NCBI GenBank assembly: GCA_963714095.1 | Contig: OY970230.1 | Coordinates: forward strand, 268,114-332,113 | From: Candidatus Gottesmanbacteria bacterium | GTDB taxonomy: Bacteria > Patescibacteriota > Microgenomatia > UBA10105 > UBA927 | Direction of reading: 5' to 3' | DNA length: 64,000 nt | Shown: positions 1-34,442 of the stretch, piece by piece | Numbering within the stretch: the stretch's first letter is position 1 | How the letters are laid out: every line of letters begins with the position of its first letter | Made by a program: the position numbers and the translations under genes | The notes under the pieces: generated by a model | What the model was told of the DNA's origin: nothing | Database searches by the model: none | What the model saw: only the letters and a program-made list of their open reading frames with translations

Positions 1-975
1 GTATAACAGAAACGGCAACTCCCACAAATACAAAAGTCCCATATCAGGCGCATGGTGCCGCTGGTTATCTCCGGTTAAAAATAACCATTTAAAAGAGAAG
101 TGTGATAAGTATCCTGCAATGATGGTTTTGGCAAATATGATCCTTCGATTATCCAAAAGTAGTCCGATACGGTCCCCCCCCCGCTGATCCTGATCAAGCT
201 TCGTTATATCACGGGCCAACAGTGTCGTCTGATCCGTGAATGAACTTGTGCCGCGAAGCCGCGAAAGTGCGGTTTGATTAAGTACTACCGGAATAAGCGG
301 CGCCACGAGTACTATTCCCAGAATGATACTGAGAATAAGCAACTTCGTGTGTTCTTTGACAAACAGCTCCCGCCGGTAGACAACAGCCAAAAGAACAATA
401 AGGAGCGGAAGAAATACCCGTTCGCTGGGATACACATACATTCCCAGGGCCAACAACACAGCCGAAACTGGAAGATACGCGCGCTTCTTCAAACCCGCCA
501 GAAATGCCGTCACGGCCCAAATATTCAGCGTTACTCCGGTATTGGCTTCAAATGCGACACGAGAAAACTGTATGGACCATGGTGAAACGGCAAGTAAAAA
601 CGATGAAAGCAATGGAATCGTGTCGTTTTTCCGACCGCGCAGGAGTTCGGCAACAAGAAAATAGACACCCAGAACAGCAAGTACACCCATTACAGCCGAT
701 GGCAGCCGCGTGGACCACACGGATAGACCGAATAAGGCTATCGATGGAATCGTAATATATGCATAGAGCGGAGGTTTATAATCATTAAATGACCGGAGTG
801 ACAGCGGCAAGAACGTCCCATATTCGTCTCTGCCGGTTTTAAGAATGGAATATGCGTTATACCCGAGCGCTGCTTCATCCCAATCGGGACTCGCGGGCAC
901 AGTCCCAAGTTTATAGAACCGCAGACCAGCGGCGATCGCTATAATTATAAACAATGAAATAAGTGTTTTTTTCAT
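1..975 (-). CDS. GT-C membrane glycosyltransferase, family 39 / PMT-ArnT-like (partial; C-terminus lies beyond window start)
   Basis: Reverse-strand translation from the ATG at 975 (MKKTLISLFIIIAIAAGLRFYKLGTVPASPDWDEAALGYNAYSILKTGRDEYGTFLPL...) runs uninterrupted to position 1. It is absent from the ORF track only because no stop lies in the window. It is hydrophobic multi-TM, and its first extracytoplasmic loop carries the D-E ... GRDE motif typical of PMT/ArnT-like GT-C enzymes. The motif is near-identical to paralogs 972..2615 and 11109..12731. The ATG overlaps the upstream gene's TGA (ATGA). Confidence 0.65.
   Translation of the reverse strand, partial: MKKTLISLFIIIAIAAGLRFYKLGTVPASPDWDEAALGYNAYSILKTGRDEYGTFLPLSLRSFNDYKPPLYAYITIPSIALFGLSVWSTRLPSAVMGVLAVLGVYFLVAELLRGRKNDTIPLLSSFLLAVSPWSIQFSRVAFEANTGVTLNIWAVTAFLAGLKKRAYLPVSAVLLALGMYVYPSERVFLPLLIVLLAVVYRRELFVKEHTKLLILSIILGIVLVAPLIPVVLNQTALSRLRGTSSFTDQTTLLARDITKLDQDQRGGDRIGLLLDNRRIIFAKTIIAGYLSHFSFKWLFLTGDNQRHHAPDMGLLYLWELPFLLY
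174..182. repeat. homopolymeric C9 (G9 on the coding strand) tract inside the partial GT39 CDS
   Basis: Nine consecutive C at 174-182, encoding Q-R-G-G-D on the minus strand. It is currently in frame. No other homopolymer this long was noticed in the window. Confidence 0.9.
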
Positions 976-2615
976 AACTTCACTCCACCGTTATCAAATA
1001 TCACGAGTACCGGATTTCCGTTCAATAAATGAATCGTGTTAATTATCCTGGCACCTTTCGGAGCCGTATCCCAAACGTACAGCGTTTTGGGCGCAAGTGT
1101 AGCCGGTAGAGTTCCGCCGAATCTGTACTTGAGAAATCCGTCGACATGGTAAAATCCCGCCGCGTCAAAATACGCATCCTTCGTCCGGAAAAAATCGTTC
1201 GGATCGGTCTTCGTATAAAATAATGTATACATATACGGCCTGCCGATGGTATCTGAAATGACAATATGGTCATATTTCGGCGTGAGGGGCGCGATGCTTT
1301 CTATCGCCTCACGATATCCGTATTGCCATTCTCCGGAAAATTCTATCGGGTAATGGAAGTAATAATTATGCAGATAATAGGTAAAACTGAATAGGTACAG
1401 AAAAATAATACAGGCAATTCCCGCCCAGTATATGCGTTTTTTCTTGTCGCCTACACGGAGTAAAAACTCTGAAACCTGAAGAATGCCAAACGCCACAAAA
1501 ATCTGCCATGTCGGCAACGAGTTAAGGATACGGAGTGCGTGCGGCGTTTCACGGGCTGTGGCAGCAGGAATAATTGCCGCGATGATCCAATACGCAAATA
1601 ACAGCCCGACACCGGGATACGAAAGAAAAAGCGCACAGATGCCGATCGCGAAAAACGGTGCCTCAATAAGATACAGTTGCCCTACGTCCTGAATGGAAAA
1701 TTTCGGATTCCCGTCGCCTTTCACAAATAAAAAGTCCGGCTCCAGATTATCCATAAAGTGGATAAGGAAACTTCTGGCATACCCCACCCGCCGGTTATTT
1801 ACTAATTCACCTATTACATTTCCTTTATCGCGTGCTATCCGCTGATTTGCCGTCTCGACGACTGAAACGTCAGTAAATATATTCACTTCGTCGAAACGAA
1901 TACGTGCCTGCGGTGACAATAGGTGTGGAACTATAGGCGCCATACAAAGAGCTGAAATAATCAAACCAATGATAAACGGCTTGAGATTTGATTTAATTTC
2001 CCGGAATGAATAGAGCATGAGTGCGGGGACAAACAGAACTGAAAAAACTCTCGCGCTGTTGAATGTATATATGGAAGCCACAAAGGGAAGCCAAGCGAAC
2101 CACCATCGCTTCGGGTGCGTCCGCGCAGAAAGTACAAACCATGTCCCGAGTACAACGAAAAACAGTGCGATATTCGCCTCAAATCCTCCACGAGAAATAT
2201 TTATATGCCACGGGGAAATAGCTAATACTGCCATACCAAGTAGCGCCAAAGCATCACGCGGAAGCTTTTTACTCGCCCGGCTAAACAATTCTTTAACAAG
2301 AAAATAGACGAGAAACACCGTGAACGTTCCGAAGAGTGCTGCGGGCAGGCGTACGGCCAAATCACCGAGTCCGAATATCGCAACAAATGGAACCGTCGCA
2401 TAAATCGCCAATGGGGGTTTGTAATCTCCGTATGAAATAAACGTATCAACCGGCAAAAATCTGCCGTGCTCATCGCGGCCGGTTTTGAGAATACTGTATG
2501 CGTTATACCCGATGGCGACTTCATCCCACGACAGTCCGGGCGGCACCACCGTCACCTTATAGACGCGAAGAATAAATGCACAAACAAAAATAAGAAGAAA
2601 TAGAATTTTTTTCAT
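972..2615 (-). CDS. GT-C membrane glycosyltransferase, family 39 / PMT-ArnT-like
   Basis: The 575-aa ORF is trimmed to the internal start MKKILFLLIFVCAF (ATG at 2615). N-terminal loop motif: LSWDEVAIGYNAYSILKTGRDEHGRFLPV. It has about 10 or more TM segments and a C-terminal soluble region. Its TGA stop (972-974) overlaps the next gene's ATG (973-975). Confidence 0.75.
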   Translation of the reverse strand: MKKILFLLIFVCAFILRVYKVTVVPPGLSWDEVAIGYNAYSILKTGRDEHGRFLPVDTFISYGDYKPPLAIYATVPFVAIFGLGDLAVRLPAALFGTFTVFLVYFLVKELFSRASKKLPRDALALLGMAVLAISPWHINISRGGFEANIALFFVVLGTWFVLSARTHPKRWWFAWLPFVASIYTFNSARVFSVLFVPALMLYSFREIKSNLKPFIIGLIISALCMAPIVPHLLSPQARIRFDEVNIFTDVSVVETANQRIARDKGNVIGELVNNRRVGYARSFLIHFMDNLEPDFLFVKGDGNPKFSIQDVGQLYLIEAPFFAIGICALFLSYPGVGLLFAYWIIAAIIPAATARETPHALRILNSLPTWQIFVAFGILQVSEFLLRVGDKKKRIYWAGIACIIFLYLFSFTYYLHNYYFHYPIEFSGEWQYGYREAIESIAPLTPKYDHIVISDTIGRPYMYTLFYTKTDPNDFFRTKDAYFDAAGFYHVDGFLKYRFGGTLPATLAPKTLYVWDTAPKGARIINTIHLLNGNPVLVIFDNGGVKL

Positions 2616-2648
2616 GAGCGACTTCTTGGAAAACATAGCGCCTTCATG

Positions 2649-2666
2649 TATGATAACCCTATCATT
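2649..2666. promoter_or_regulatory. inverted repeat ATGATA-N4-TATCAT plus AT-rich -10-like element in a 56-nt divergent intergenic region
   Basis: atgata (2650-2655) and tatcat (2660-2665) are exact reverse complements around the spacer accc. The repeat lies 6 nt upstream of the YfhO ATG (2672) and about 35 nt from the divergent GT39 start (2615). Confidence 0.3.
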
Positions 2667-2671
2667 ATAGC

Positions 2672-5080
2672 ATGAGAAAATATCTACCACTTCTGGCACT
2701 TATCGGCGTATGTCTTCTCTTCTTTTATAAAACGTTTCTATTCGGGCAGGTTCCGTTTCCGGGAGATCTTCTGTTGACTCAATATTCACCGTGGCGCCAC
2801 CAATCATACAGCGGATACGTGGCCGGTGCCGTGCCGAGCAAAGATCAATATTTTGATGTTATCCGCGAGTTATATCCTTGGAAAACTCAAGTCATTACCG
2901 CTCTGAAACACGGAATATTCCCTCTATGGAATCCCTATAATTTTTCCGGTGCCCCCCTTTTGGCTAACTACCAGTCTCAGGTATTTTACCCGCTGACCTT
3001 CGTCTATTTCCTGATGCCTCAAATTTCCGCCTGGACCATCATGGTTATCATCCAACCGATACTCGGCACTGTATTTATGTATTTATTTTCCACAGAAATT
3101 GGGCTGGGTGCCGACGCGGCAGTTCTGGCTGCACTACTCTTTAATTTTTCCAGTTTTGCGAACGTTTGGATGGAATTTACCACGGTGTGGCACACAATTT
3201 TGTGGTTGCCGCTTCTCCTTTATTTTGTCGAACGGGGTATAAAACAACGCACACTCTGCCTCTGGCAACAGATTATATTCATCATCGCGCTGTTTTGTGC
3301 GATCACCGCAGGCCACCCGCAGGATTTTATTGATACATTTTTGTTTCTTCTTTTATATACGTGTCTGAGAATTGCAACGGCACCAGGTTGGTCATGGCAG
3401 GAAAAAAAATCTTTTGTTTTTCATCCCATTCTTTTTATATTTGGGATTCCATTTTTCCTTGCTGCACCGCAGTTGTTTCCGACAATTGAACTCTTTAGAA
3501 ATTCCGCGCGTGTTGCACACGATTATCAGGGCATTATTCATACCATGCTTGTCCAATGGTGGCAGATACCTCTGATCGCCGTACAGGAATTATTCGGCAA
3601 TCCGGCAACAAAATCGAACATCACAGGCGATTATATCGGCAAAACACTCTCCGTTGGTGTCGTGGGGTTCTTTCTCGTACTTGCTTCATTCTTCCATAAA
3701 GTTGATTCATGGCATAAAAAATTTTTCGCCTGCAGCGCATTAGGCATTCTCCTCATCACAGTACGTACGCCGCTTACGGAGCTTTTATACCGATATCCCT
3801 GGCCGGTTCTCTCAACCGGTACACCCACAAGAATTTTGGTTATACTGATGCTTGCGCTTGCCATGCTGGCAGGATTCGGATACGACGCGGTCCGTCTGAA
3901 TAAAAAAATACCCGATAAACCATTACTACTCAGTTGGGTTATCTTTCTGTTCCTCTGGATTTTTGTGTTCATCCATCCGAACATCGGCGGTCTTACCTAT
4001 ACTATCGGTGCGGCATCCACCATGAAACGTGCTATGGTTATCGCAACCGGAATTTTAGGGTGTCTCACGCTTATCCTTTTTGCAAGCAGGTACAAAAAAT
4101 ATTTACTGTGGTTAGCCCTCCCGCTGGCAGTTGCGGAACTCTTCTATGGCTTTACCAAGTTCAATCCATTTGTCCCGATATCCTTCGTATATCCCCAAAA
4201 CAATCTCATCAGTCAACTGCAGAAAACGCCTGGCATTGACCGCTTTTGGGGATACGGGACCGCAGAAATCGAGGCAAACTTCGCAACGCAGGAGTACATC
4301 TATTCTCCTGACGGCACGGATCCTCTAAATCTACGATGGTACAATCAATTTATCCAAGCAAGCCGCGACGGAAAAATTGCAGCTACATTTGACAGAACCA
4401 CGCGATCTGACGCACAAATCCTCCCGGGATACGGGAAAAGCGATTTACCTTCCAATGAATTCCGTCTCCGGATCATGGATACCCTCGGAGTTAAATACAT
4501 CATTGACCGGCCGGAAAACCCCAAAGACAACAATACGTTCCCGGTTAACCGGTTCAAAATGGTCTGGCATGAGGATGACTGGACGATATATGAAAATCTT
4601 CTGTCTGCACCAAGATTTTTTCTTACGTCGGATGTCCGGCCATACGGCAACGCAACTGATTTTGAGTCGCAATTTTTTGCAAAAGATTTCAATCCAGGAA
4701 AAACGGTATTATTGCTACAAAAAGACCGAAACGAACTTCCACCTCTTGCCGGAAGCGGATCGGCAAAACTTATTTCCTACACACCAAACTCCATAAAAAT
4801 TTCTGTAAAGACCGATGCAAAACAATTACTATTTTTAAGCGACACGTTCGATAATGGATGGACGGCATCGGTAAACGGAAACCCAACGAAAGTCTATCAG
4901 GCAGATTATGCATTCCGGGGAGTTCTCGTACCTGCAGGAGAATCGACAGTTATCTTTACCTATCAACCACAGTCATTCCAATTGGGTCTGGGCGTCAGCG
5001 GATTCTCCTTCGTAATTTTTGCAGTCTACTGCATTGTAACTCTTCGATCGTCATCCAAACATAAAAAAGGAAAAAAATAA
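2672..5080 (+). CDS. YfhO-family polytopic membrane protein (GT-C superfamily, putative lipid-linked sugar transferase)
   Basis: 802 aa with about 13 TM helices and a C-terminal beta-rich soluble domain. It ends in the characteristic YfhO C-terminal pattern DNGWTASVNGNPTKVYQADYAFRGVLVPAGESTVIFTYQP. The N-terminus carries FPGDLL..YSPW. Confidence 0.7.
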   Translation: MRKYLPLLALIGVCLLFFYKTFLFGQVPFPGDLLLTQYSPWRHQSYSGYVAGAVPSKDQYFDVIRELYPWKTQVITALKHGIFPLWNPYNFSGAPLLANYQSQVFYPLTFVYFLMPQISAWTIMVIIQPILGTVFMYLFSTEIGLGADAAVLAALLFNFSSFANVWMEFTTVWHTILWLPLLLYFVERGIKQRTLCLWQQIIFIIALFCAITAGHPQDFIDTFLFLLLYTCLRIATAPGWSWQEKKSFVFHPILFIFGIPFFLAAPQLFPTIELFRNSARVAHDYQGIIHTMLVQWWQIPLIAVQELFGNPATKSNITGDYIGKTLSVGVVGFFLVLASFFHKVDSWHKKFFACSALGILLITVRTPLTELLYRYPWPVLSTGTPTRILVILMLALAMLAGFGYDAVRLNKKIPDKPLLLSWVIFLFLWIFVFIHPNIGGLTYTIGAASTMKRAMVIATGILGCLTLILFASRYKKYLLWLALPLAVAELFYGFTKFNPFVPISFVYPQNNLISQLQKTPGIDRFWGYGTAEIEANFATQEYIYSPDGTDPLNLRWYNQFIQASRDGKIAATFDRTTRSDAQILPGYGKSDLPSNEFRLRIMDTLGVKYIIDRPENPKDNNTFPVNRFKMVWHEDDWTIYENLLSAPRFFLTSDVRPYGNATDFESQFFAKDFNPGKTVLLLQKDRNELPPLAGSGSAKLISYTPNSIKISVKTDAKQLLFLSDTFDNGWTASVNGNPTKVYQADYAFRGVLVPAGESTVIFTYQPQSFQLGLGVSGFSFVIFAVYCIVTLRSSSKHKKGKK

Positions 5081-5086
5081 GCTAAA

Positions 5087-7597
5087 TTATGCTCTGTGTC
5101 CAAACCTGATGAGTCGGCTCATACAGCATACGATTACAATGCTGAGTATTATTCCCACGGCCGTAACGATTTCACCTATGGTAAGTGTTATCGGTGTATA
5201 GGTAAAGACGACAGTATGCTTCCCTTCAGGTGCCTCAACTGCCCGCAGGGTGTAATCCGCACGATAGAGTTCAGTAGGTTTACCGTCTATAGTTGCAGTC
5301 CATCCCGGATAGTAATTGTCGGTTAGTACTACGAATCCTGAAACAGGAGAGGCTATTGAAACAGTCACAGTATTGAGACCATAGGATGTTATTGTGGCTG
5401 ATGATGCCTGATCACCGGAATATTTCGGTAAGGCCGGTACTACGGGCACACGTTCCAAAACAACAGTAGAGTCTAAACGAACAGCGGGATCATACAGAGT
5501 ATCAATAATTTGTTGAGGATCACTTCGTACGATATAGGACCTTAGGAACATAACACGCGGTAACGCCTGCCTATACTGCCAAATACGCCATGTACTATCC
5601 TCCCATACGGTCGTAAACATTTCAGGAGGAAAACGTTTTTCGGTTGACTGTAAATCCGTGTATTCTCCTTTTTTGCTTTCAAGAATATATTTAACCCCAA
5701 AAAGCGACATAATCCGCAGGCGATAGGGATTTGAAGAATTAAGCGGGTCTATTTCAGACATTTCATAAAGATCCGTGTCACTTCTGCGGATAATTCCTCC
5801 AAGTTTTCCTTTGTTTGCGATAGTTGAAAGAAGCTCAGCGTATCGGCTTGATGAAAGATTACTATACCCATCCGTTGAAAACCACCGAAAATATTCCGGA
5901 AGGTTTTTTTCTATAAACGCATTCCCGTAGCCCCAAATCCGATCATATCCTGCAAGGTCAGTTAATTTGGTAATAACCGGCAAATTCGGGTAGACAAAGC
6001 GATTTTCACCGAAATACACATATTTATCTGCAAAATAGATACCGGATGCCGCCGTCAGAACGCATACATAAACAAAAACATCTCGTTTCGAAAATCTTGA
6101 AACAAAAAGTAAACCCCATCCTGCGAGCAAAAATGCCGTCGGTACAATAAGATTCCTGAGAGATACAGTTGCGTAATACGGAGCGATTTTCTTCAAGGAA
6201 AATAATTCTCCGCATACGACCAACGTTTTCCCAAGACACCAAAGAGAGTAAGAATGATAATAATGATTGATGCACCATAAACCAATGACGACAATCCATC
6301 CCGTTCCAAGAAATACACAGAAGCTAAGAAGTATCAAAACCATCCGTTTGCGGTTAGGCTTACTCAAAAAAGACTCTAACCCATAGCACGAAAGAATACT
6401 GAAAGAAAAAACCGATACGGCAAATATCCGCGTCGGGTATGAAGTTGAAAGAATAGGAATTTTAAGATAATACGGAACCCAACTTGTCGGTAATGCAAAA
6501 CACATTGAAAAACATACAACTCCTATGATTGTCCAGAAAATAACCGTTTTTTTTCTAACTTGCAACATTGCGTAAATCGCAAACAGTAACGGAATAATGC
6601 CGATAAAAATTGTTTTTTCAAAATAGAATCCGCTGCCGCCAAAATAATTATACGTCGCCGGGTTGCCCCAATAATCAGGTGCGAACAGCGTAATAATATT
6701 CCTGAAAGGCAGGAGATCCTGCCGGAATACAAAACTTGCGTCATTCGTTCCCCGCGGAGAGAGTACAAAAGCCTGAATCGACGGAATAAGCTGTATGCTT
6801 TCAATCAGAACAGAACAAAGAACCGCAAAGATTATAACCCAGGCCGAACGAGCTGCATTCTTTTGTCCGCGAAGCCTCAGAAAGCAATAAACATTCCACA
6901 AAAAAACAACCGCATATACGTACGCCGACATTTGCAAAAATCCGGCAAACGCAGAAGATACCAGCGAAAAAAGAAGTAAGAAAAAATCAAACGTGTCATC
7001 GTACCGCTCCCATACCCTATTGGAAGCATAAAGCGCTAGCGGCAACCATAAAAAACTATGTTCAATTACCACAGATTCCTGCCAGTAAACTACCATCCAC
7101 CCACTCAGTGCATAGACAAATGAACCGAATGCGGCCAGAGGTATACGGAACTTCAGAGATCTCAAAAATATGTACATGAACACAATGGACAGTATCGGTT
7201 GTATGACAACGAGGAAATTCCATCCTTCTATAGTGGGAAGAGCAGCCGCAATCCATGACAGTGGATACCAAACAGCAGGAGTTGATGCCGCCATAAATGG
7301 CGCACCGCTGTAAATATATGGATTCCACAACGGTAATACTCCCCTCCATAATGCATCCTGAAGTAATTTTCTGTCTGGATATGACTCCCGGATAATATCA
7401 AAACCTATTGGCTTATTCGGTGGTCCGTTTGGATATTCCGGAACGGGCTCATACCTCCATGGTGAATACTCTGTCACTAATAAATTTGAGGGAAATACCG
7501 TTTTATGATCGAAAAAAAACTGATGGAAAATAGCAATCGTAATACCCAAAGCGGCAACAAGGACAATGAGTAGCTCAAACAAGAATATTTTTTTCAT
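5087..7597 (-). CDS. YfhO-family polytopic membrane protein (paralog)
   Basis: The 849-aa ORF is trimmed to MKKIFLFELLIV (ATG at 7597). C-terminal motif: YPGWTATIDGKPTELYRADYTLRAVEAPEGKHTVVFTYTP. Its 3' end is convergent with 2672..5080, with a 6-nt gap. Confidence 0.7.
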   Translation of the reverse strand: MKKIFLFELLIVLVAALGITIAIFHQFFFDHKTVFPSNLLVTEYSPWRYEPVPEYPNGPPNKPIGFDIIRESYPDRKLLQDALWRGVLPLWNPYIYSGAPFMAASTPAVWYPLSWIAAALPTIEGWNFLVVIQPILSIVFMYIFLRSLKFRIPLAAFGSFVYALSGWMVVYWQESVVIEHSFLWLPLALYASNRVWERYDDTFDFFLLLFSLVSSAFAGFLQMSAYVYAVVFLWNVYCFLRLRGQKNAARSAWVIIFAVLCSVLIESIQLIPSIQAFVLSPRGTNDASFVFRQDLLPFRNIITLFAPDYWGNPATYNYFGGSGFYFEKTIFIGIIPLLFAIYAMLQVRKKTVIFWTIIGVVCFSMCFALPTSWVPYYLKIPILSTSYPTRIFAVSVFSFSILSCYGLESFLSKPNRKRMVLILLSFCVFLGTGWIVVIGLWCINHYYHSYSLWCLGKTLVVCGELFSLKKIAPYYATVSLRNLIVPTAFLLAGWGLLFVSRFSKRDVFVYVCVLTAASGIYFADKYVYFGENRFVYPNLPVITKLTDLAGYDRIWGYGNAFIEKNLPEYFRWFSTDGYSNLSSSRYAELLSTIANKGKLGGIIRRSDTDLYEMSEIDPLNSSNPYRLRIMSLFGVKYILESKKGEYTDLQSTEKRFPPEMFTTVWEDSTWRIWQYRQALPRVMFLRSYIVRSDPQQIIDTLYDPAVRLDSTVVLERVPVVPALPKYSGDQASSATITSYGLNTVTVSIASPVSGFVVLTDNYYPGWTATIDGKPTELYRADYTLRAVEAPEGKHTVVFTYTPITLTIGEIVTAVGIILSIVIVCCMSRLIRFGHRA

Positions 7598-9374: not shown

Positions 9375-9380
9375 GCGGAT

Positions 9381-26803: not shown

Positions 26804-28329
26804 GAACGACGCCTCTTGATAATTACCGCTATACCATACCAGATCAGAAATCCTAATGAAATATTATCCGCCAAGAATCTGGAAATAGTCTCCCGAAATC
26901 CTGCAACCAACCGGTGGGTTCCCTGCGGCACAGGAACACGGATAAGACCCTGAGGATTTTTATAATCAATAAGCGCTGGGGAATCGTCCACAGTGACCCC
27001 CCAACCGGGATAATACACCGTATTTATTTGTACAATGCTGTTTTCGTCCGCGTGAACAATGACATCAATAGACTGTGTGGATACTTTTCTGAATTCAAAC
27101 GTGCCGGCGCCGTCATAAAAAATAAGTCTTTGGTATGCGTGTTGGGTAGGAAGCTGACTGACCCATATGGGCATATATTCGTTCTGTACTGTAGTTGTTG
27201 CCTCATTCGTAGTGTAATACCCTTCGGGCAGGTCAGTATACTGAATCTTCTGCAGCGACGACACAACTGACCATACTCCTAATCCTGCAAACACCAGTAT
27301 CAGCAAAAACCGAACGATGGAATGCTGATTCTCCAACACATACGCGATGAGCCAACACCCGATAAAAATAGTGACGGATAAAAATCGGTACGGAAATTGA
27401 ATAATATGTACCAACAGACTAGACCGCCAAATGAAAGCGCTAACCGGCAAGACCATAAAAAGAGTGATGAGAAATAAAACAAGAAAAAACGATTTTTCCC
27501 TCTTCAGGTGTTTCCCTGTGAATAATGCGACGGCAGCAGCAATAATTGTTGAAAATCCCAACAACATCATGTTAGATTCGCCAATAAAATACGAAGCGGG
27601 ATCGGCAACCTGTACCGAGTCAAATACGACGTATTTGCGCTCATACAGCGCCGGAAACCAAAAAAACATCACCATGCCGATCCCTAAGAAAAACATGAGC
27701 CAAAAATCGCTCCAGCGCCCGAGTACAGTAATATACAAAACATAAAATCCCAAGAATAACACCGCCAGCGTATTATGACTCACAATAATCAACGATACGG
27801 CAAGGGCCAACAACCATGGTTTTTTTGCTGCAATCGAATACAATCCCATAGCAGCCCATGCAAGCGCCAGCACCTCTCCGACTGACCCTCGGGAATACAT
27901 ATCAAAGAGAAGATATGGAGCACTTACAAAACACAGTGCGCCAACCATACTGACAAGCATCCTGAAATATCGCTTCAACCATAAAAAAGTAAACAGAACG
28001 CCGATAAGAACGGAACCCGCCATAATAATCTTGACACTGGCAACAAATGGAAACCCGGCAATATGAATGAGCGATCCGAGATACAAATAACCCGGATACA
28101 GAAAATTGGCGACAGGATACCCGTACCCGTAATTTAATCTTCCCAAGAAGCGGACGGGAAATTGTCCTTCACGCAAGCTCTGAAAGAAAGCGCTGAGGCG
28201 TATGATCATCCATCCGCCATCATCCGATACAAAAAATCCCTGTCGCATGAGAGGAAAAAATACTGCAAACGCACCCGCCAAAAGTACGAGAAGAAACACA
28301 ACAAAAAGGATACTATGATTCCGTTTCAT
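26800..28329 (-). CDS. short YfhO-like GT-C membrane protein (YGYGYP-motif subfamily, paralog)
   Basis: The ORF is trimmed to MKRNHSILFVVFLLVLLAG (ATG at 28329). Motifs: SDDGGWMIIRLSAFFQSLREGQFPVRFLGRLNYGYGYPVANFLYPGYLY and a C-terminal YYPGWGVTVDD. There are ATGA overlaps at both ends. Confidence 0.55.
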   Translation of the reverse strand: MKRNHSILFVVFLLVLLAGAFAVFFPLMRQGFFVSDDGGWMIIRLSAFFQSLREGQFPVRFLGRLNYGYGYPVANFLYPGYLYLGSLIHIAGFPFVASVKIIMAGSVLIGVLFTFLWLKRYFRMLVSMVGALCFVSAPYLLFDMYSRGSVGEVLALAWAAMGLYSIAAKKPWLLALAVSLIIVSHNTLAVLFLGFYVLYITVLGRWSDFWLMFFLGIGMVMFFWFPALYERKYVVFDSVQVADPASYFIGESNMMLLGFSTIIAAAVALFTGKHLKREKSFFLVLFLITLFMVLPVSAFIWRSSLLVHIIQFPYRFLSVTIFIGCWLIAYVLENQHSIVRFLLILVFAGLGVWSVVSSLQKIQYTDLPEGYYTTNEATTTVQNEYMPIWVSQLPTQHAYQRLIFYDGAGTFEFRKVSTQSIDVIVHADENSIVQINTVYYPGWGVTVDDSPALIDYKNPQGLIRVPVPQGTHRLVAGFRETISRFLADNISLGFLIWYGIAVIIKRRRS

Positions 28330-29837
28330 ACCTTGCGTGCAGGAGGAATGATTTGATAGAGACGTAAATAGACGTTCACTGCGTTGCCCTTTTGATATTG
28401 CGCAATGAGCTTCAATGGCCAAGCAGGAATATTTTGTATCTGATTAAACACAATATAGGTAGGGTGGTCCTTCGCTTGAGAAAGCATCTCTGACGTCGGC
28501 TCTGCCGGCATGGGATAGACACCCTGAATTTTCATATTCGGATTATCGACGAGATACAGTTCGATTGCATATGGTAGCAAACCAAACGTCCCGTCCGTAT
28601 ATACGGTAACTTTCCCTTTTTCCGATTGGGCAAGCAAAAAGACATTTACTTGGGATACACCCCAACCCGACGGCCAATTATCTATATATTGACCCGCATC
28701 TGCCTCGGGAATCGGCGCATAGAGCGGGTTGACGATAATATAATAATCAGTGTAGATGCTTCCGAACAACAGCACGGCCAACAGTACCCACCGCCAAACT
28801 GATCCCTTAAAATAATCCCATACCCATCGCATGGTGATGGCGGCCAAAATCATAAGCGGAATAGTCATGAACAGGATAAAACGCGGATAGAGTACCCTAC
28901 CATCCAAGGCAAGGGCAAAAAATGGCGCGAACCACCAACCCAACAGGACTAATTTTTCTGCCGGCCGCTTCCATAGGGAAAAACCGGCCAACATCGCCGC
29001 GACAAAAATCGGCCAAGTTAAATAATGAATAGCCCAGTCAAATAAACCATGGATATTTCCTAAAAGAAAATTAAACGGATGTGTAAGCCACTGGCGGAAC
29101 GTATACACAAATACGGCGTCTTTCTCCCCGACCATAGCATATAAAGGTGACAACCGCAGCACACTATACATAAGCTGTGAAATAACTGCTGCAATAATGG
29201 TTAATCCTATCCAACGGAACAGTCGTCGGGTCCTCCCATCGCGCTGCCAATCAAACAACAAAAGGGTTCCCGGTAACATATATAGACTTAAAAATCCTTC
29301 CGTTTTATTCAGCATTCCTAACCCAAGCCCTAATCCTAAGAGTAATGCGACGTCCAACCGTACGCGACGAACCAACAATATTGCCAGATATAGATTCCAA
29401 ATAGAAAGGGTTGCGGTGAGCGAATCATAGAGCGCCATGCGGTCATAAACCAATCCGAAAGGAATCAAAACGTACAGGAGGCTGGCGATAAATCCTAGCT
29501 TTTTACTCCGAAACAATTCATTCGCTGTAAGATAGATACCGATGGCCGTAAAAAACCCAGCCATCACGGATACCAACCGGCCGGCCATAAGCGGATCGCG
29601 GAAAATACGCAAAAATACCATCGTAATCCAGGTAAACAACGGCTGCTTTCCGTCAACCAGCGAGATAAACCGCCAGTTTGCATCCCGGCTGCCTATTTGG
29701 GACCACCGGATATAAATCGCCTCATCGGTAAATATCGGGAGCTTCGTGAGGTTTGTAAGCCTGGTAACCGCGTAAAGGGCGGCAAGACCGGCAGCAAGAA
29801 GCAACATTTTCCCCCACCCACGCTTGAATATGGCCAT
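28326..29837 (-). CDS. GT-C membrane glycosyltransferase, GT39/ArnT-like
   Basis: The ORF is trimmed to MAIFKRGWGKMLLLAAGL (ATG at 29837). Motifs: FTDEAIYIRWSQIGSRD and ...GKQPLFTW. It is polytopic. Confidence 0.55.
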   Translation of the reverse strand: MAIFKRGWGKMLLLAAGLAALYAVTRLTNLTKLPIFTDEAIYIRWSQIGSRDANWRFISLVDGKQPLFTWITMVFLRIFRDPLMAGRLVSVMAGFFTAIGIYLTANELFRSKKLGFIASLLYVLIPFGLVYDRMALYDSLTATLSIWNLYLAILLVRRVRLDVALLLGLGLGLGMLNKTEGFLSLYMLPGTLLLFDWQRDGRTRRLFRWIGLTIIAAVISQLMYSVLRLSPLYAMVGEKDAVFVYTFRQWLTHPFNFLLGNIHGLFDWAIHYLTWPIFVAAMLAGFSLWKRPAEKLVLLGWWFAPFFALALDGRVLYPRFILFMTIPLMILAAITMRWVWDYFKGSVWRWVLLAVLLFGSIYTDYYIIVNPLYAPIPEADAGQYIDNWPSGWGVSQVNVFLLAQSEKGKVTVYTDGTFGLLPYAIELYLVDNPNMKIQGVYPMPAEPTSEMLSQAKDHPTYIVFNQIQNIPAWPLKLIAQYQKGNAVNVYLRLYQIIPPARKV

Positions 29838-29844
29838 ACTCAAA

Positions 29845-31002
29845 TTATACCTGAGGCCGCCTTGCGGGGCAAATGAGTTTATGGACCGCAACAATACCAA
29901 TTGAAAGAATCACAGGAATGACGGCCACCCAAAATTTTAGGGTTTGCACTGGAGGGTTGTAGTTACCGAAGTAAAAAAACGGTGCGTAGGTCAAAAGTAA
30001 ACCTAAGGACAGACCCGATCCAACAATTAGCGCCCATTCAAGCGAGGGCAATAAAGCATAAAACGGCACGAGCCACACGACATACCATCCGAGTATTTCC
30101 CGCTGGGTGCCAACTAACAGGAAACCGATAATCATCACCCACAGCGCAATCTTCCGCTGCCAACCGACAAAAAAGACAGGAAGAATAAATATTGTCATGA
30201 GCTTCGCTGCAACGGATAACGCAAGAACAAAAAACGAAGCCCATCTTTTTTTAATTAAATACAGATAGTACGCGATCATGACCAAAGCCATCATAACCAT
30301 GTCATTATGTCCACTCACAAGTGTTTCAAAAATCACCAGAGGGTTAAGGGCAAATATCGCCATACCCATAAATTTTTGATCCGGTTCAAGTTTAGAAAGA
30401 ATTTTGCCGATAAAAATAATCGTCAGAACGTAGCATGCAGCAACAAGTATTTTTATATTCCACATAATTGCCAAAAAATAGCCAAAACCCAGTACGTACG
30501 CGGGGAGCGTAAGGAGAATCCAAAACGGCGTATAGGCGCTGGGTAAATGCGTCCAGTGCATAAACGACAACCATGGTTCCACGCCGGTGAACTGGAGCGG
30601 AATGACGGTGTAGGGATTTTTCTGATACAACACGACCGTTTTAGCGGTAAACATATAGTTAAACATGTCATAGGAAAATGCGGGGTATGAAAATATAAGA
30701 ATCGCAGTCATAATACCGACGGTCCACCAAAAAATCCTCATGGATATTGTTTTTTTCCGCACTGCATTCAGAAAAAATCCATATAAAATAAAAAATACGG
30801 CAACAAGAACGAGATAGATAGTTGTGGAAAGCGGCCGGTTAAAATAGCCGATATATTGAAAACTTTTCTCAAGAAGTTGGTAAATACTTGCCCGCGAAAG
30901 CGTAAGACTTAAATCTACCTGCGTATAGGAATATAAAAATAACCCGAGAGCCGATACTGCATAAAGAATCGGCAAAAGAATAGTGTTTTTATTTCGTTTC
31001 AT
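29845..31002 (-). CDS. polytopic membrane protein, putative GT-C glycosyltransferase (DUF2029/GT87-like)
   Basis: The ORF is trimmed to MKRNKNTILLPILYAV (ATG at 31002, overlapping the TGA of the next gene). It has about 11 TM helices, the motif FSYPAFSYDMFNY and no soluble domain. Family assignment is tentative. Confidence 0.45.
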   Translation of the reverse strand: MKRNKNTILLPILYAVSALGLFLYSYTQVDLSLTLSRASIYQLLEKSFQYIGYFNRPLSTTIYLVLVAVFFILYGFFLNAVRKKTISMRIFWWTVGIMTAILIFSYPAFSYDMFNYMFTAKTVVLYQKNPYTVIPLQFTGVEPWLSFMHWTHLPSAYTPFWILLTLPAYVLGFGYFLAIMWNIKILVAACYVLTIIFIGKILSKLEPDQKFMGMAIFALNPLVIFETLVSGHNDMVMMALVMIAYYLYLIKKRWASFFVLALSVAAKLMTIFILPVFFVGWQRKIALWVMIIGFLLVGTQREILGWYVVWLVPFYALLPSLEWALIVGSGLSLGLLLTYAPFFYFGNYNPPVQTLKFWVAVIPVILSIGIVAVHKLICPARRPQV

Positions 31003-31751
31003 TGATACAATCCCCGCCATGCATTCATACGGATTTTAAGAATATCAGCAAATCCCTGTATTGAATCGATAACGGGATTCACGCGGCGCGTCTCGACATA
31101 ATGCCATTCCACGGGTACTTCTTTAATTTTATACCCGAGAATTCTCGCCAGAAACAGCATCTCTATATCAAATCCAGCAGTTACCATTGACCCGCTGACT
31201 GCATGGCGATTCCCATATAATCTGAGGCGATGAAAAATATCGTGAGCGACGGGAGCACGGAACGCTTTAAATCCGCACTGCGTATCCACGATCCCGTGAA
31301 GACCTAAAATCAAACTCCGAAGTGTCATGAATCCCCGTGCCATAACGCGCCGCGTAAGAGGAGCACCCTGACGCCGTCCTCTTCTGGAACCGATAACCAC
31401 GTCATACCCTTTTTCAAACCAGGGCAGCAATTTTGTTAACTCTGCAATCGGTGTCGCCTGGTCAAGGTCGGTAAACAACACTAATGTACCGCGGCTCGCG
31501 AGCATTCCGGTAATAACCGTCGATGCTTTTCCCTGATGAGGATTATGGATGACTGAAAACCCGCGGTTTACCTGTACAAATGAGTCCAAGAGATCCCGTG
31601 TTCCGTCTGATGATCCGTCGTCCACGATAATTGCTTCCCATTGATAGTGTTGGTGTTCCAAATATTTGGATACCTTATCGAGCGCCCCCAAACGGATATT
31701 GGTTTCTTCGTTGTATGCCGGAATAACCACTGATAAATCAATTTTCGCCAT
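30999..31751 (-). CDS. family 2 glycosyltransferase, polyprenol-phosphate sugar synthase-like
   Basis: 250 aa. Motifs: LSVVIPAYNEETNIRLGALDKV, IIVDDGSSDGT and FTDLDQATP. Confidence 0.8.
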   Translation of the reverse strand: MAKIDLSVVIPAYNEETNIRLGALDKVSKYLEHQHYQWEAIIVDDGSSDGTRDLLDSFVQVNRGFSVIHNPHQGKASTVITGMLASRGTLVLFTDLDQATPIAELTKLLPWFEKGYDVVIGSRRGRRQGAPLTRRVMARGFMTLRSLILGLHGIVDTQCGFKAFRAPVAHDIFHRLRLYGNRHAVSGSMVTAGFDIEMLFLARILGYKIKEVPVEWHYVETRRVNPVIDSIQGFADILKIRMNAWRGLYQ

Positions 31752-31752
31752 A

Positions 31753-33339
31753 TTAAACTCCAGTATAGTGCACCAGCCTGAATATTTTCACAAAAGGCAC
31801 ACTCCATTCTCCGGTAATCTCCGCCCGCCCGAACCCTGCAATTTCCCACAACGAATTCCCAAGAGGCTGACAATCGGACAACTCGCAAATCACGATAAGC
31901 TGATCCGTCACCGTCGTGCGTTTTGGATCTACCTGATTATTTTCTATTGTAACGGGCGCGCGCTGCGCGATTTCAAAAAAATATCGGTAGGTATAATCAG
32001 AATTTCCGCTGGCCAGAAGCGCAAAATTAAACGGTTTTCCGCCGGTATGGGCAAGCGCCGTTTCGGCAATCTGCCGCGCCTGAGCCAACTGATTGTTCGG
32101 AGAATAGAGAAACGGCCTTCCCTGCCAGTTAAAAAACAGGAGCCCTCCCCAACACAGCAATGCAACGACTGCCCCAGCCCGAGTTTTCCCGACTGCAAAC
32201 AATACGATACCGATCAGCAAAAACGGTAATGTAAATGCGATGCCGAAATAATAATCATAAATTGCCTTTTGATAAAAACAAAACAAAATGATCACTGTGG
32301 TAAACCAGATAAGCAATAATTGTGCTGCGTGATAGAACCGTGTTTTTTCTTCCTCGGTTTTCCCCTGTGTCAGCCATATAAATACGGACGAAAGAAACGG
32401 AATTTTTGAGGCGACCAAGACGCCAAGAAATAGAAAACTGATGAATATTGTTGTCCGCGTTCCGATAAACCAGGCATACAATTGCCACGCCGGCAATGAT
32501 TTCCATAACGCCCCATCCGGTAACCGATACAGGAGGCGCCCGAATAACCGAAAGAGAACATCGTCCATCGTGGTGAAGAAACCCGGAGAAACCCCAGTAT
32601 CTTTACCGGCCAAAAGAAACCGGATGACGGACTGGGTATTGGGAAACCCGTGGCGAACCTCAAATGCCAGAAACGGAGAATACCCAATAAGAAAACCGAA
32701 AAATACCCATAACACACTCTTGAAAAACGGTAATGTTTTCATGTTCAGCAGCAACCAAATACCCGTCACGACAAACAGGAACAGGAATAAATAATGAAGC
32801 TGCAGCCCTATCCCAAGGACAACGCCGATCCAGAGGAGCGTCGATGTACGCTTCTTTTCAACCGCAAACCATAATAAATAAATAAGGAGCAGGGAAAAAA
32901 ACGGCACGAGATTCGGATTCCATGAGGAACGGGAATACGCAATGACCAGCGGCGAGAGTGCATATAAACTGGCGGCAACGAGTCCTACCCATGGGCTTAC
33001 AAAATCTTTCCCGACCTTAAAAACAAGACAAACGGTCGCAATACCGAAGAGGGCTACCATGATGGCGGGCCCGACCGGATTTAATTTCCATGCCCATAAA
33101 AACGGGAGCATGAAATAATAATAGATAGGACCGAGGAAAAATCCCCCGACGGATGCCGTAGGACCCAAGAGCGTAAACTTATGGTTCACGATTATATGCA
33201 TGACGACCAAAACGTCACGCCCTTCGTCTCCCAAAAACGTCATATAGCCGGATATTTTATACAACCGCAGGTATGCCGCAAAACCGAGAATAATGATGAG
33301 CGGAACCAGCCACCACCGGTGTTTTAGTTCCTTTTCCAT
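31753..33339 (-). CDS. GT-C membrane glycosyltransferase, GT39/ArnT-like
   Basis: The ORF is trimmed to MEKELKHRWWLVPLIIILGF (ATG at 33339). Motifs: YLRLYKISGYMTFLGDEGRDVLVVMHI and GPIYYYF. Confidence 0.6.
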   Translation of the reverse strand: MEKELKHRWWLVPLIIILGFAAYLRLYKISGYMTFLGDEGRDVLVVMHIIVNHKFTLLGPTASVGGFFLGPIYYYFMLPFLWAWKLNPVGPAIMVALFGIATVCLVFKVGKDFVSPWVGLVAASLYALSPLVIAYSRSSWNPNLVPFFSLLLIYLLWFAVEKKRTSTLLWIGVVLGIGLQLHYLFLFLFVVTGIWLLLNMKTLPFFKSVLWVFFGFLIGYSPFLAFEVRHGFPNTQSVIRFLLAGKDTGVSPGFFTTMDDVLFRLFGRLLYRLPDGALWKSLPAWQLYAWFIGTRTTIFISFLFLGVLVASKIPFLSSVFIWLTQGKTEEEKTRFYHAAQLLLIWFTTVIILFCFYQKAIYDYYFGIAFTLPFLLIGIVLFAVGKTRAGAVVALLCWGGLLFFNWQGRPFLYSPNNQLAQARQIAETALAHTGGKPFNFALLASGNSDYTYRYFFEIAQRAPVTIENNQVDPKRTTVTDQLIVICELSDCQPLGNSLWEIAGFGRAEITGEWSVPFVKIFRLVHYTGV

Positions 33340-34442
33340 ATTATTTTTGAATACATAACGTAATTCCAAATAAGAAGAAGCGCAGTTCCCAAAAGAAAGA
33401 AAATGAAATACTGCCGGTCACCGAAAACCCGCACACCAACCCAGATCATCCCCGTCTGTATGACAACAACGCCAAACGCGCTGGTTACATAAAACTGCAG
33501 GAGCTTCGCGAGATATTGTCTGATACCGGAAATCTTACTGTGTTTAAATGTCCAGAGATTATTGAGATTAAAATTTGAAAAGATGGCCACTGCTGCTCCC
33601 GTAAGGTTTGCCCATGTAGCCGACCAATTCGCGTTATGCAAAACTATTAAAATAACTGCGTTAAGAATAAATCCTATGCCTCCGACTACGAGAAATTTTC
33701 CGAATGACCCTGTCATAATTTCCTGAATTTTTGTTACCGCTATATATTTATACGTATTGAAAATATACTCCGCAGGCGCAATCTTCGAGTGTCCGAATCG
33801 TCTGTCGGTAAAGTGTATCGGAACCTCGACAATATGTGCTCCGTCATGAGCGGCGCTGTGAAGAAACGCAATTTGAAACACATAGCCGCTGTATTCTTTC
33901 ATCTTTTCCTTATTATCCACATAATACTTTTTGGTATACGCGCGGTATCCGCCGGTCCAATCATGAATCCCCAGATGCCACAATCCGAACCGTACGATAC
34001 TGTTGCCTACTACGCTGTATATTTTGCGGATAAATCCCCAATTGTCCGGTATGGATCCGCCCGGGATATACCGGCTGCCGACAACAAAATCCGCCCCGTC
34101 ATCGATCGCCCGTAAAAATTCCGGAACTGAAGCAGGATCATGGGACAAATCCGCATCCATCTGAAGCAGAATATCTGCATTCAGATTCCTGACTGCATAG
34201 GTCATTCCCCGCAGTAACGCTTTCCCTAAACCCTCCTTTTTCGCTGTAATAAGATATACGTTACCGTGTGACTTCTGATATTCTTTCACGAGATTGCCAG
34301 TACCATCGGGAGACATATCATCAACAACGACATAGGATACGCTGTGGCGTTTTACATCTTTACATGCCGCCGCCAGCTTATCTAAAAGCACAATAATATT
34401 CTCTCTTTCGTTATATGTGGGAATAATAACGACAACCTTCAT
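33324..34442 (-). CDS. family 2 glycosyltransferase (dolichyl/polyprenyl-phosphate mannose synthase-like) fused to a C-terminal GtrA-like 4-TM domain
   Basis: The ORF is trimmed to MKVVVIIPTYNERENI (ATG at 34442). GT2 motifs: VVVDDMSPDGT and LQMDADLSHDP. C-terminal region: KFLVVGGIGFILNAVILIVL...AVAIFSNFNLNNLWTFKHS, matching the GtrA-family signature. Confidence 0.75.
   Translation of the reverse strand: MKVVVIIPTYNERENIIVLLDKLAAACKDVKRHSVSYVVVDDMSPDGTGNLVKEYQKSHGNVYLITAKKEGLGKALLRGMTYAVRNLNADILLQMDADLSHDPASVPEFLRAIDDGADFVVGSRYIPGGSIPDNWGFIRKIYSVVGNSIVRFGLWHLGIHDWTGGYRAYTKKYYVDNKEKMKEYSGYVFQIAFLHSAAHDGAHIVEVPIHFTDRRFGHSKIAPAEYIFNTYKYIAVTKIQEIMTGSFGKFLVVGGIGFILNAVILIVLHNANWSATWANLTGAAVAIFSNFNLNNLWTFKHSKISGIRQYLAKLLQFYVTSAFGVVVIQTGMIWVGVRVFGDRQYFIFFLLGTALLLIWNYVMYSKIIWKRN

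Follow-up and report, generated by a model that had tools for sequence, protein, structure and literature searches.

Introduction

The closest described counterparts of the locus reported here are the multi-component glycosylation systems of Firmicutes, namely CsbB/GtcA/YfhO, GtlA/GtcA/GtlB, the lactococcal Csd pairs and GacI/J/K/L of Streptococcus pyogenes, in which a GtrB/CsbB-type glycosyltransferase of family GT2, a GtrA- or Wzx-type flippase and a YfhO or other membrane glycosyltransferase of the GT-C superfamily are encoded by linked genes beside those of rhamnose synthesis (PMC5836110, PMC7389260, PMC8035078). In variant (b) of this transmembrane glycosylation, of which GacI/J/K/L is an example, a cytoplasmic GT-A enzyme is combined with a Wzx-type flippase and a GT-C (PMC8035078). 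Another model is provided by the Corynebacterineae, in which Ppm1 acts together with MptA/B/C/D, PimE, Emb and Aft in the synthesis of lipomannan, lipoarabinomannan and arabinogalactan, the first two being built by arrays of GT-Cs from polyprenyl-phosphomannose (PMC3485146, PMC2157549, PMC3123699). Here we analyse a stretch of 64,000 nucleotides (hereafter the window) from Candidatus Gottesmanbacteria (contig OY970230.1, positions 268,114 to 332,113), an uncultured, ultra-small member of the Microgenomates within the Candidate Phyla Radiation (CPR)/Patescibacteria with a genome of ~1.09 Mb. The first 34 kb of the window form an island of glycosyltransferase genes, 15 of which encode GT-Cs.

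The island shares with the Firmicutes systems the three kinds of component, their linkage and the vicinity of rhamnose genes. Its most widely conserved part, G18-G17-G16-G15 (two GT-Cs, a GT-A without transmembrane (TM) segments and a Wzx-type flippase; genes are numbered G00 to G23 from left to right across the window, Table 1), matches variant (b), and G23-G22 matches variant (a) (PMC8035078), its GtrA-like part forming one protein with the synthase. The stoichiometry and the arrangement differ: three synthases and one or two flippases stand beside 15 to at least 20 GT-Cs in an operon-like block, whereas the 1:1:1 units of Firmicutes are scattered, and the organism is a CPR bacterium whose genome measures ~1 Mb. 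In the Corynebacterineae, many distinct GT-Cs each make one linkage outside the membrane from very few polyprenyl-phosphate-sugar donors; the island would follow the same economy, and it encodes both a synthase like dolichyl-phosphate mannose synthase (DPMS) and Ppm1 (G23) and a GT87/MptA-like member (G20). In mycobacteria the GT-C genes are spread over a genome of 4.4 Mb, while those of the island are contiguous, belong mostly to PMT_2, YfhO and PTPS_related and show no sequence orthology to Mpt, Emb or Aft; neither a decaprenyl-phosphoarabinose pathway nor matches to arabinosyltransferase families of the Emb/Aft type are present in it.

Two further systems deserve mention. ArnC/ArnT and Rhizobium RgtE/RgtA-D likewise place a GT2 beside GT-Cs of the PMT_2/ArnT fold with a UDP-glucose dehydrogenase nearby, but the island has no homologs of ArnA, ArnB or ArnD, and no lipid A synthesis was found in other CPR genomes (PMC5220378). 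An Arn/Rgt-like module (Ugd, UDP-glucuronate decarboxylase/epimerase, GT2 and ArnT-like transferase) was considered and rejected, the candidate short-chain dehydrogenase/reductase (SDR) being Rmd/GMD-like, with a far weaker match to UXS, and not a UDP-glucuronate decarboxylase/epimerase. PMT-type O-glycosylation (eukaryotic Pmt1/2/4, actinobacterial Pmt, PgfS/PgfM of Streptococcus mutans) has in common with the island the PMT/PMT_2 families, a DE pair in loop 1, a partner synthase for sugars linked to polyprenyl phosphate (Pol-P) and Thr/Pro-rich surface proteins encoded nearby. The island differs from it in the absence of MIR domains (no Pfam match), in another C-terminal extracytoplasmic domain and in the presence of at least eight paralogs in one locus.

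Results

Gene content of the island

Pfam scans of positions 1-34442 yielded 24 contiguous genes, that is 15 polytopic GT-Cs, seven GT2, one GT4 and one Wzx-type MOP flippase, and this inventory, proposed in an initial annotation made from the sequence without database searches, was borne out almost gene for gene by Pfam, hhalign and AlphaFold/Foldseek. The GT-Cs comprise eight PMT_2/PMT (GT39-like) proteins (G00, G01, G04, G05, G06, G08, G19 and G22), four long YfhO proteins (G02, G03, G09 and G11), two short PTPS_related/YfhO-like proteins sharing a YGYGYP motif (G17 and G18) and one GT87 (G20); the GT2 are G07, G12, G13, G14, G16, G21 and G23, the GT4 is G10 and the flippase G15. The block had been described as mostly co-directional, and 21 of its 24 genes do lie on the minus strand. 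Six nucleotide-sugar genes at 34453-39855 (the Rmd/GMD-like SDR, Ugd and RmlD/B/C/A) adjoin it, so that 30 genes fill 1-39855 with 99.6% coding sequence and frequent 4-nt overlaps. All open reading frames (ORFs) of the window are intact, and 34442 coincides exactly with the start of the GT2-GtrA gene (372 aa) as called in orthologs. By contrast, the Pfam scan found no glycosyltransferase among the 21 ORFs that it covered in the 40-64 kb region, the few remaining ones carrying non-glycosyltransferase Pfam marks in the gene calls of another assembly; this region is devoted to housekeeping (Sua5, TsaE, FtsEX, PrfB, Znu, RuvABC, SecA and others), and the clustering of glycosyltransferases is therefore not a matter of chance.

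The GT-C paralogs are 22-42% identical to one another. A search for traces of recent duplication, gene conversion and invertible elements detected no long DNA repeats and no meaningful inverted repeats, but only stretches of ~80 nt, 72-76% identical, that code for the conserved GYNAYSILKTGRDE motif. Since the paralogs are old and long repeats are missing, neither a recent amplification nor an assembly artefact accounts for the array.

Assignment to the GT-C superfamily

Twelve of the 15 GT-Cs exceed Pfam gathering cut-offs (G00 through its full gene on contig L083 of the same organism), the exceptions being G05, G17 and G18. Within the window, PMT_2 or PMT is matched above the cut-off by G01, G04, G06, G08, G19 and G22, and all four long YfhO proteins are above theirs. 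As for the exceptions, G05 aligns with the profile of the G01 family (hhalign probability 99.8%, E 3e-28), whereas G17 and G18 are paralogs of each other (28% identity over 528 aa; G17 against the G18-family profile, hhalign probability 100%, E 3e-49), and members of their family in a close relative do exceed the Pfam cut-off for PTPS_related. Orthologs of the PMT-type members are named 'glycosyltransferase family 39 protein' by NCBI.

The fold was tested with AlphaFold models of two representatives. G18, modelled from an alignment of 44 sequences with a predicted local distance difference test (pLDDT) score of 87 and a predicted template modelling score of 0.87, had exclusively GT-C structures among its top 20 Foldseek matches in the PDB (STT3, AglB, PglB, AftD, ArnT, ALG12, AftA and ALG9), transporters appearing with non-significant scores only. 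G01, which represents the most expanded subfamily (pLDDT 90.6), matched exclusively GT-Cs over its top 33 (STT3, ArnT, ALG12, Pmt4, AglB and PglB, with Pmt1-Pmt2 also matched) and reached a TM-score of 0.52-0.54 with ArnT. PDB searches by sequence with G01 and with the long YfhO protein G11 returned no match. Hydropathy analysis gives 6-12 peaks or TM segments for each of the 15, all of which are polytopic, and an acidic motif recurs in the first loop: DE follows TM1 in seven of the eight PMT_2 paralogs (DQ in G08), D38 and E39 are invariant in 44 sequences of the G01 family, the DD pair (D36, D37) after TM1 is invariant in 44 sequences of the G18 family, and an aspartate of this loop is conserved in all four long YfhO paralogs. 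On the family models, the fold of the two representatives and this motif, the 15 polytopic proteins belong to the GT-C superfamily; the initial annotation had named hits to transporter families as the outcome that would speak against it, and hidden Markov model searches as well as the G01 and G18 structures point to GT-C models and folds instead. Family membership and the co-encoded homologs of Pol-P-sugar synthases suggest that these enzymes use a polyprenyl-phosphate-linked sugar donor at the outer face of the membrane.

The family of G17 and G18 extends far beyond the island. With a threshold of E<=1e-3 a profile search retrieved 14,684 representative clusters, of which 2,985 reached E<=1e-30, and a few of the matches are giant multi-copy proteins, such as P0465 (3329 aa, five matched stretches), P0468 (1670 aa) and P0384 (1116 aa). 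This is a large family of the GT-C fold that is barely covered by Pfam.

Conservation across the Microgenomates

An alignment of the flippase was searched against one genome per GTDB species, which gave at least 453 relatives; 80 loci were fetched with 10-kb flanks and their ORFs classified by phmmer against the window proteins. The named relatives of the flippase belong to Candidatus Gottesmanbacteria, Microgenomates and the 'Patescibacteria group', with G15 identities of 59-88% in the relatives found, and in 39 of 40 full-length loci seven or eight GT-Cs lie within 10 kb of the flippase. Essentially every Gottesmanbacteria locus fetched is colinear with the order G23-G22-G21-G20-G19-G18-G17-G16-G15-G14-G13-G12-G11-G10-G09-(G08)-G07, and the sub-core G18-G17-G16/21-G15-G14-G13-G12-G11-G10-G09-G07 is found in most loci of Levybacteria and other Microgenomates. 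The same order recurs across dozens of other species and in independent assemblies of the same organism (L083/L084), and it is confirmed by the complete 995,214-bp chromosome OY969569.1, for which gene calls were independent and Pfam matches precomputed, and which has rmlB, rmlD, ugd and rmd at the corresponding place. Synteny thus agrees with the clustering postulated at the outset, the genes being clustered and colinear in related genomes and not scattered.

Ortholog identities amount to 45-86% per gene, except for G09 (35-62%), G18 (43-73%) and G17 and G20 (both down to 44%); the donor synthases and the flippase are generally better conserved (G16 66-82%, G21 68-86%, G15 59-77%) than G17, G18 and G09 (35-75%). 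Eight core GT-Cs have one-to-one orthologs across the lineage (45-80% identity), and the fact that each keeps a separate conserved ortholog argues for non-redundant roles. The repertoire had been called unusually large, which it is in comparison with model bacteria, but in this lineage it is the norm.

At the junction of the core and the distal array, G08 lies on the opposite strand, its likely start (13653) separated by only ~20 nt from that of the divergent G07 (13633). Orthologs of G08 are confined to the two closest genomes (75-80%). The gene looks recently inserted, and its catalytic properties may be different.

Because the island is cut by the window start, 15 GT-Cs are a lower bound. 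On a 7,962-bp contig of the same organism (L083), G00 is a 545-aa PMT_2 protein and a further polytopic PMT_2-like gene (L083:1-852, minus strand) lies to the left of base 1, so that the minimum for this organism is 16. In the closest relatives (L086:13212-21419 and L166:13188-21584), G01 and G00 are followed, beyond the part seen in the window, by PMT_2, PTPS_related, GT2, a DUF5667 protein (~180 aa) and a GT87/MptA-like gene, followed by an extra PMT_2 in L086 alone and then by a final PTPS_related, L166 adding GT4 and GT2. The distal part of OY969569.1 (143,284-164,867) is colinear with G06 to G00 apart from one extra PMT_2 and continues with PMT_2, PTPS_related, GT2, a 179-aa protein, MptA_B, PTPS_related, GT4 and GT2, so that this chromosome carries no fewer than 20 GT-Cs in a stretch of at least 48 kb (~116.6-164.9 kb). 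Across more distant Microgenomates the distal array varies, with 2-6 copies like G01/G06 and with insertions and deletions even among close relatives, and no close ortholog of G04 or G05 was found in three related contigs. Hence the variable glycome envisaged by the initial annotation has to be qualified: the distal PMT_2/YfhO array accounts for most of the variation in gene content, while the eight core GT-Cs are conserved one to one.

Further GT4, GT87 and PMT_2 genes, a methyltransferase and DUF5667 are among the ten most frequent families of unassigned ORFs in 160 related loci; the others have no Pfam match or a weak one. The DUF5667 protein (~180 aa; L086:17004-17552, L120:8287-8814, L166:17062-17601) is encoded between the GT2 and the GT87-like gene, and together with the methyltransferase family it is among the few recurrent non-glycosyltransferases of the distal island in relatives. 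It is also worth recording that many public metagenome-derived records with a colinear island (L004, L006, L012, L014-L017 and others) carry the titles 'uncultured Gammaproteobacteria' or 'Pseudomonadales', and that single island contigs (L046, L073, L079 and L082) are assigned to Bathyarchaeia, Eisenbacteria or Paceibacterota; such off-lineage records are probably mislabelled or misbinned.

Donor synthases, flippases and sugar supply

Three of the seven GT2 resemble Pol-P-sugar synthases, in line with the initial annotation, which had expected at least that many. G23 aligns over its full length, membrane domain included, with the dolichyl-phosphate (Dol-P) mannose synthase of Pyrococcus furiosus (5mlz, E 1.9e-38), followed by ArnC. 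The best PDB sequence matches of G21 are ArnC, GtrB sll0501 and DPMS (E 5e-13 to 2e-11) and its best NCBIfam models PgfS and Dol-P-hexose transferase, while G16 is closest to the NCBIfam models PgfS, ArnC, Dol-P-hexose transferase, AglJ and PpgS, all below equivalog cut-offs. Homology thus identifies G16, G21 and G23 as putative synthases of the DPM1/GtrB/ArnC type that would load one sugar onto polyprenyl phosphate. The four other, soluble GT2 and the GT4 match ordinary polymer-building enzymes best, one of them being rhamnosyltransferase-like, and are on the same grounds predicted to be ordinary cytoplasmic glycosyltransferases. Two candidate flippases are recognized by homology, the Wzx-type MOP protein G15, whose NCBIfam matches (MOP flippase, O-glycosylation Wzx as second-best, TuaB) are all below cut-off, and the GtrA-like domain fused to G23.

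The initial annotation had attached the supply genes to the 3' end of the block; they do adjoin it at 34453-39855, the SDR directly, but in the direction of transcription they are located upstream. The SDR (34453-35412) has as its best PDB match the GDP-6-deoxy-D-lyxo-4-hexulose reductase 2pk3 (Rmd, E 1e-82), followed by GDP-heptose and GDP-mannose dehydratases, which suggests a 6-deoxyhexose of the GDP-D-rhamnose type besides dTDP-L-rhamnose; the window shows neither a separate GMD gene nor a ManC gene. By homology, the six supply genes would furnish dTDP-L-rhamnose, UDP-glucuronate and a GDP-6-deoxyhexose. As side observations, the RmlC ORF (38642-39118, minus strand) gives an unexpected match to Polysacc_synt_C (37 bits) besides dTDP_sugar_isom, and the RmlB/RmlC boundary, as drawn from ORFs, contains a 43-nt overlap.

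Coordinates and flanking features

The features of the island are collected in Table 1. Sigma-70 promoter-like sites in 1-40 kb were at chance level (43 found against 44.5 expected; 29 against 36.4) and terminator-like sites slightly above it, yet inside genes, so that these scans are uninformative on operon boundaries. ARAGORN found no tRNA or tmRNA in the whole window. Outside the island, a 502-aa ORF (59150-60658, minus strand) belongs to no Pfam family and shows a weak NCBIfam likeness to pyridoxal-phosphate-dependent cystathionine gamma-synthase/lyase; two further assemblies of this organism retain it, with its neighbours unchanged. In L001 (ENA ERZ25039480 contig_57716), which was compared with window positions 43000-64000, the genes for PrfB, ZnuA, ABC-3 and YibE/F are fragmented, probably by frameshift errors of that assembly, whereas they are intact in the window.

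Table 1. Coordinates and assignment of the genes of the island and of the adjoining nucleotide-sugar genes
Gene	Start	End	Strand	Length (aa)	Assignment	Basis and remarks
G00	1	960	-	545 in full	PMT_2/GT39-like GT-C	Cut by window start, frame open to base 1; 39-42% identical to G01 and G06; full gene with PF13231 on independent Logan contig L083
G01	972	2636	-	554	PMT_2/PMT GT-C	PMT_2 41.5 bits, PMT 30.7 bits
G02	2672	5080	+	802	Long YfhO GT-C	YfhO 64.7 bits; 27-30% paralog of G03, G09 and G11 over full length
G03	5087	7636	-		Long YfhO GT-C	YfhO 64.9 bits; likely start ATG 7597
G04	7594	9318	-	574	PMT/PMT_2 GT-C	PMT 32.6 bits, PMT_2 30.5 bits; DDE motif after TM1
G05	9381	11105	+	574	Divergent PMT_2-like GT-C	PMT_2 24.1 bits against a cut-off of 26.1; GDE motif
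G06	11109	12731	-	540	PMT_2 GT-C	PMT_2 45 bits; 34% identical to G01 over 548 aa
G07	12728	13633	-	301	Soluble 'polymer-building' GT2	Glycos_transf_2 77 bits; best NCBIfam matches MftF, EpsD and PgaC-like, not Pol-P-sugar synthases
G08	13491	14945	+		PMT_2-like GT-C	PMT_2 32.9 bits; likely start ATG 13653; DQ in place of DE
G09	14928	17189	-	753	Long YfhO GT-C	YfhO 99.5 bits; colinear ortholog in all core loci
G10	17186	18220	-		GT4 (GT-B fold), putative cytoplasmic glycosyltransferase	Glycos_transf_1 71 bits and Glyco_transf_4
G11	18217	20475	-	752	Long YfhO GT-C	YfhO 92 bits
G12	20472	21221	-	249	Soluble GT2	Glycos_transf_2 73 bits; no TM; 34% paralog of G14
G13	21218	22138	-	306	Soluble rhamnosyltransferase-like GT2	Pfam GT2 families; best NCBIfam TIGR01556 rhamnosyltransferase, below cut-off
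G14	22111	23106	-		Soluble GT2	Glycos_transf_2 80.6 bits; likely start ATG 23010
G15	23015	24457	-	480	Wzx-type MOP flippase	Polysacc_synt_3 178 bits
G16	24445	25188	-	247	TM-less GT2 resembling Pol-P-sugar synthases	Pfam GT2; related to G21 and G23
G17	25160	26803	-	547	Short PTPS_related/YfhO-like GT-C	GYGYGYP motif; YfhO and PTPS_related matches sub-threshold
G18	26800	28329	-	509	GT-C-fold protein	No Pfam or NCBIfam match
G19	28326	29900	-		PMT_2 GT-C	PMT_2 55.5 bits
G20	29845	31020	-	391	GT87/MptA-like GT-C	GT87 26.5 bits; weak TIGR03459 alpha-1,6-mannosyltransferase match; ortholog with PF26314 MptA_B_family
G21	30999	31751	-	250	TM-less GT2 resembling Pol-P-sugar synthases
G22	31753	33369	-		PMT_2 GT-C	PMT_2 40.7 bits; likely start ATG 33339; GDE motif
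G23	33324	34442	-	372	DPMS-type GT2 fused to GtrA-like 4-TM domain	GT2 83.6 bits and GtrA_DPMS_TM 61 bits
SDR	34453	35412	-		Rmd/GMD-like GDP-sugar 4,6-dehydratase/reductase
UDP-glucose 6-dehydrogenase	35431	36729	-		UDP-glucose 6-dehydrogenase	All three UDPG_MGDP_dh domains; TuaD-like 511 bits
rmlD, rmlB, rmlC, rmlA	36736	39855	-		dTDP-L-rhamnose supply (by homology)	RmlD_sub_bind, GDP_Man_Dehyd/Epimerase, dTDP_sugar_isom, NTP_transferase; RmlB 494 bits on TIGR01181, above cut-off

Discussion

The components of the island are all drawn from known families, and what is unusual is their density, stoichiometry, contiguity and lineage-wide conservation in a genome of ~1 Mb. The explanation that we favour, and that we hold to be probable though by no means settled, is that of a chromosomal, vertically inherited envelope-glycan island of Gottesmanbacteria in which a few lipid-linked donors feed many GT-Cs that build a glycopolymer or glycoconjugate. 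The initial annotation had pictured the triad of synthase, flippase and GT-C as multiplied many times, a view that does not stand: the genes do not resolve into units of one synthase, one flippase and one GT-C, but amount to three synthase-like GT2, a Wzx-type flippase, a fused GtrA domain and at least 15 transferases, with a ratio of donor synthases to GT-Cs of 3:15. Going beyond the family assignments, we infer from this imbalance an assembly line with shared donors. Cytoplasmic enzymes would build a lipid-linked, rhamnose-containing primer that would be flipped outward; outside the membrane each GT-C ortholog would add one particular sugar or linkage, and the few lipid-linked donors would feed the many transferases that extend and decorate a cell-wall-associated glycopolymer or glycoconjugate. 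By analogy, the island seems to resemble the assembly of lipomannan and arabinan in mycobacteria and the decoration of rhamnan in streptococci and lactococci, and not 15 independent three-component systems.

Several points weigh against this explanation. The subtypes of the GT2 are called from best matches that fall below the NCBIfam equivalog cut-offs, and G15 could instead flip Pol-P-monosaccharides. Two YfhO paralogs are devoid of the first of the two loop aspartates and, since G08 carries DQ, not all GT-Cs are necessarily active; some of them may act on proteins. Moreover, neither an initiating phosphoglycosyl transferase nor an LCP-type ligase nor a polymerase was found in the 64-kb window or in the ten commonest unassigned ORF families of the 160 related loci, so that the flipped primer linked to lipid diphosphate is a step that we purely infer.

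The strongest rival, which we regard as unlikely yet worth serious attention, is protein O-glycosylation, in which the PMT_2/GT39-like enzymes, and perhaps the YfhO-like ones, would move sugars from Pol-P donors onto linkers rich in Ser and Thr in surface proteins such as those of the S-layer or of pili, as do actinobacterial Pmt/Ppm1, S. mutans Pgf and the streptococcal GtrB-dependent glycosylation of disordered regions; it is compatible with the favoured explanation. The PMT/PMT_2 matches and the invariant DE motif are those of the protein O-mannosyltransferase family, and Pmt4 and Pmt1-Pmt2 are found among the structural matches of G01, but the matches of G01 to ArnT and to the STT3 oligosaccharyltransferases equal or surpass those to the PMTs, so that the fold gives no indication of protein acceptors. 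Both G16 and G21 have PgfS as their best NCBIfam model, and an O-glycosylation flippase is the second-best of G15. Candidate acceptors, as judged from their composition and topology, are encoded close by: a Lamin-tail-domain protein (42685-43545, minus strand), separated by ~8 kb from the glycosyltransferase genes, which combines a ~60-aa linker rich in Thr and Pro (containing PTPTPMATATPAPTPTAVPTSTPTATATPTPTATATPT) with an anchor to the membrane at its C-terminus, and a CAP/YkwD-like protein (40116-41030, minus strand) that adjoins the island and has a Pro/Ala-rich linker and C-terminal TM segments. Regions of this kind are glycosylated by streptococcal GT-Cs (PMC12041528), which counts in favour of this alternative. 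On the other hand, no acceptor protein gene is present inside the conserved island, five cytoplasmic polymer-type glycosyltransferases, a rhamnose pathway and a Wzx flippase in one operon are more typical of glycopolymer synthesis, and those enzymes of the YfhO family that have been characterised use teichoic acids and polysaccharides of the cell wall as acceptors (PMC5836110, PMC8035078).

A conventional Wzx/Wzy heteropolysaccharide cluster (capsule, exopolysaccharide or O-antigen-like), in which several of the supposed GT-Cs would be polymerases or ligases acting on repeat units linked to lipid diphosphate, appears improbable. The Wzx-type MOP flippase, the five cytoplasmic glycosyltransferases and the nucleotide-sugar genes would all fit such a cluster; G17 and G18 have no curated family, and oligosaccharyltransferases, whose donors are lipid-diphosphate-linked oligosaccharides, head the structural matches of both G18 and G01. 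However, the scanned window ORFs and the ten commonest unassigned families of the related loci gave no match to Wzy_C, Bac_transf, Glycos_transf_4 (WecA/MraY-type), Wzz or Poly_export (Wza/Wzc), so that Wzx is the only required part found, although the remainder could be encoded elsewhere in the genome. WaaL is a non-significant structural match of G01 (rank 35, probability 0.33), the three GT2 that resemble Pol-P-monosaccharide synthases would be superfluous, and one polymerase would be needed, not fifteen. That the array stems from mis-assembly of related strains, from collapsed or expanded repeats or from mostly decaying, redundant duplicates is hardly credible: although the sequence is metagenome-assembled and many genes are fragmented in the other same-organism assembly L001, the ORFs of the window are intact, its paralogs are only 22-42% identical without long DNA repeats, their catalytic-loop motifs are conserved, and the gene order recurs in L083/L084 and in dozens of other species.

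Earlier papers on CPR genomes mention 'many glycosyltransferases' as well as rml genes and call the formation of the CPR envelope unclear (PMC5220378). No description of the island or of GT-C arrays in CPR bacteria was found in the searchable open-access literature, a limited search that is not proof of novelty. To our knowledge, which is general and not the result of a census, clusters of 15-20 GT-Cs are exceptional among bacteria. For glycobiology, the island offers a compact natural case of many GT-Cs sharing few donors outside the Actinobacteria, and it provides defined targets, i.e., three donor synthases, one flippase and a set of orthologous GT-Cs that includes the G17/G18 family.

The envelope-glycan island that we favour also bears on the biology of these organisms. 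CPR bacteria presumably live attached to hosts, which gives their surface a central role, and in the present genome of ~1.09 Mb at least 40 kb in the window alone are devoted to envelope glycosylation. That a streamlined genome conserves the island to this degree speaks for a glycoconjugate of importance, possibly an essential one. It is tempting to go further and to speculate, more tentatively than for the island itself, that in the Microgenomates, a large class of ultra-small and probably episymbiotic CPR bacteria, a lineage-wide, operon-like assembly line of ~20 GT-Cs with three lipid-linked donors builds the outer envelope layer largely outside the membrane, the core making an essential scaffold glycan and the distal PMT_2/YfhO array diversifying the surface. 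If this were true, ~4-5% of a 1-Mb genome would be given over to an extracytoplasmic glycan factory in the style of mycobacteria, and the variable distal array would possibly set host attachment or phage specificity.

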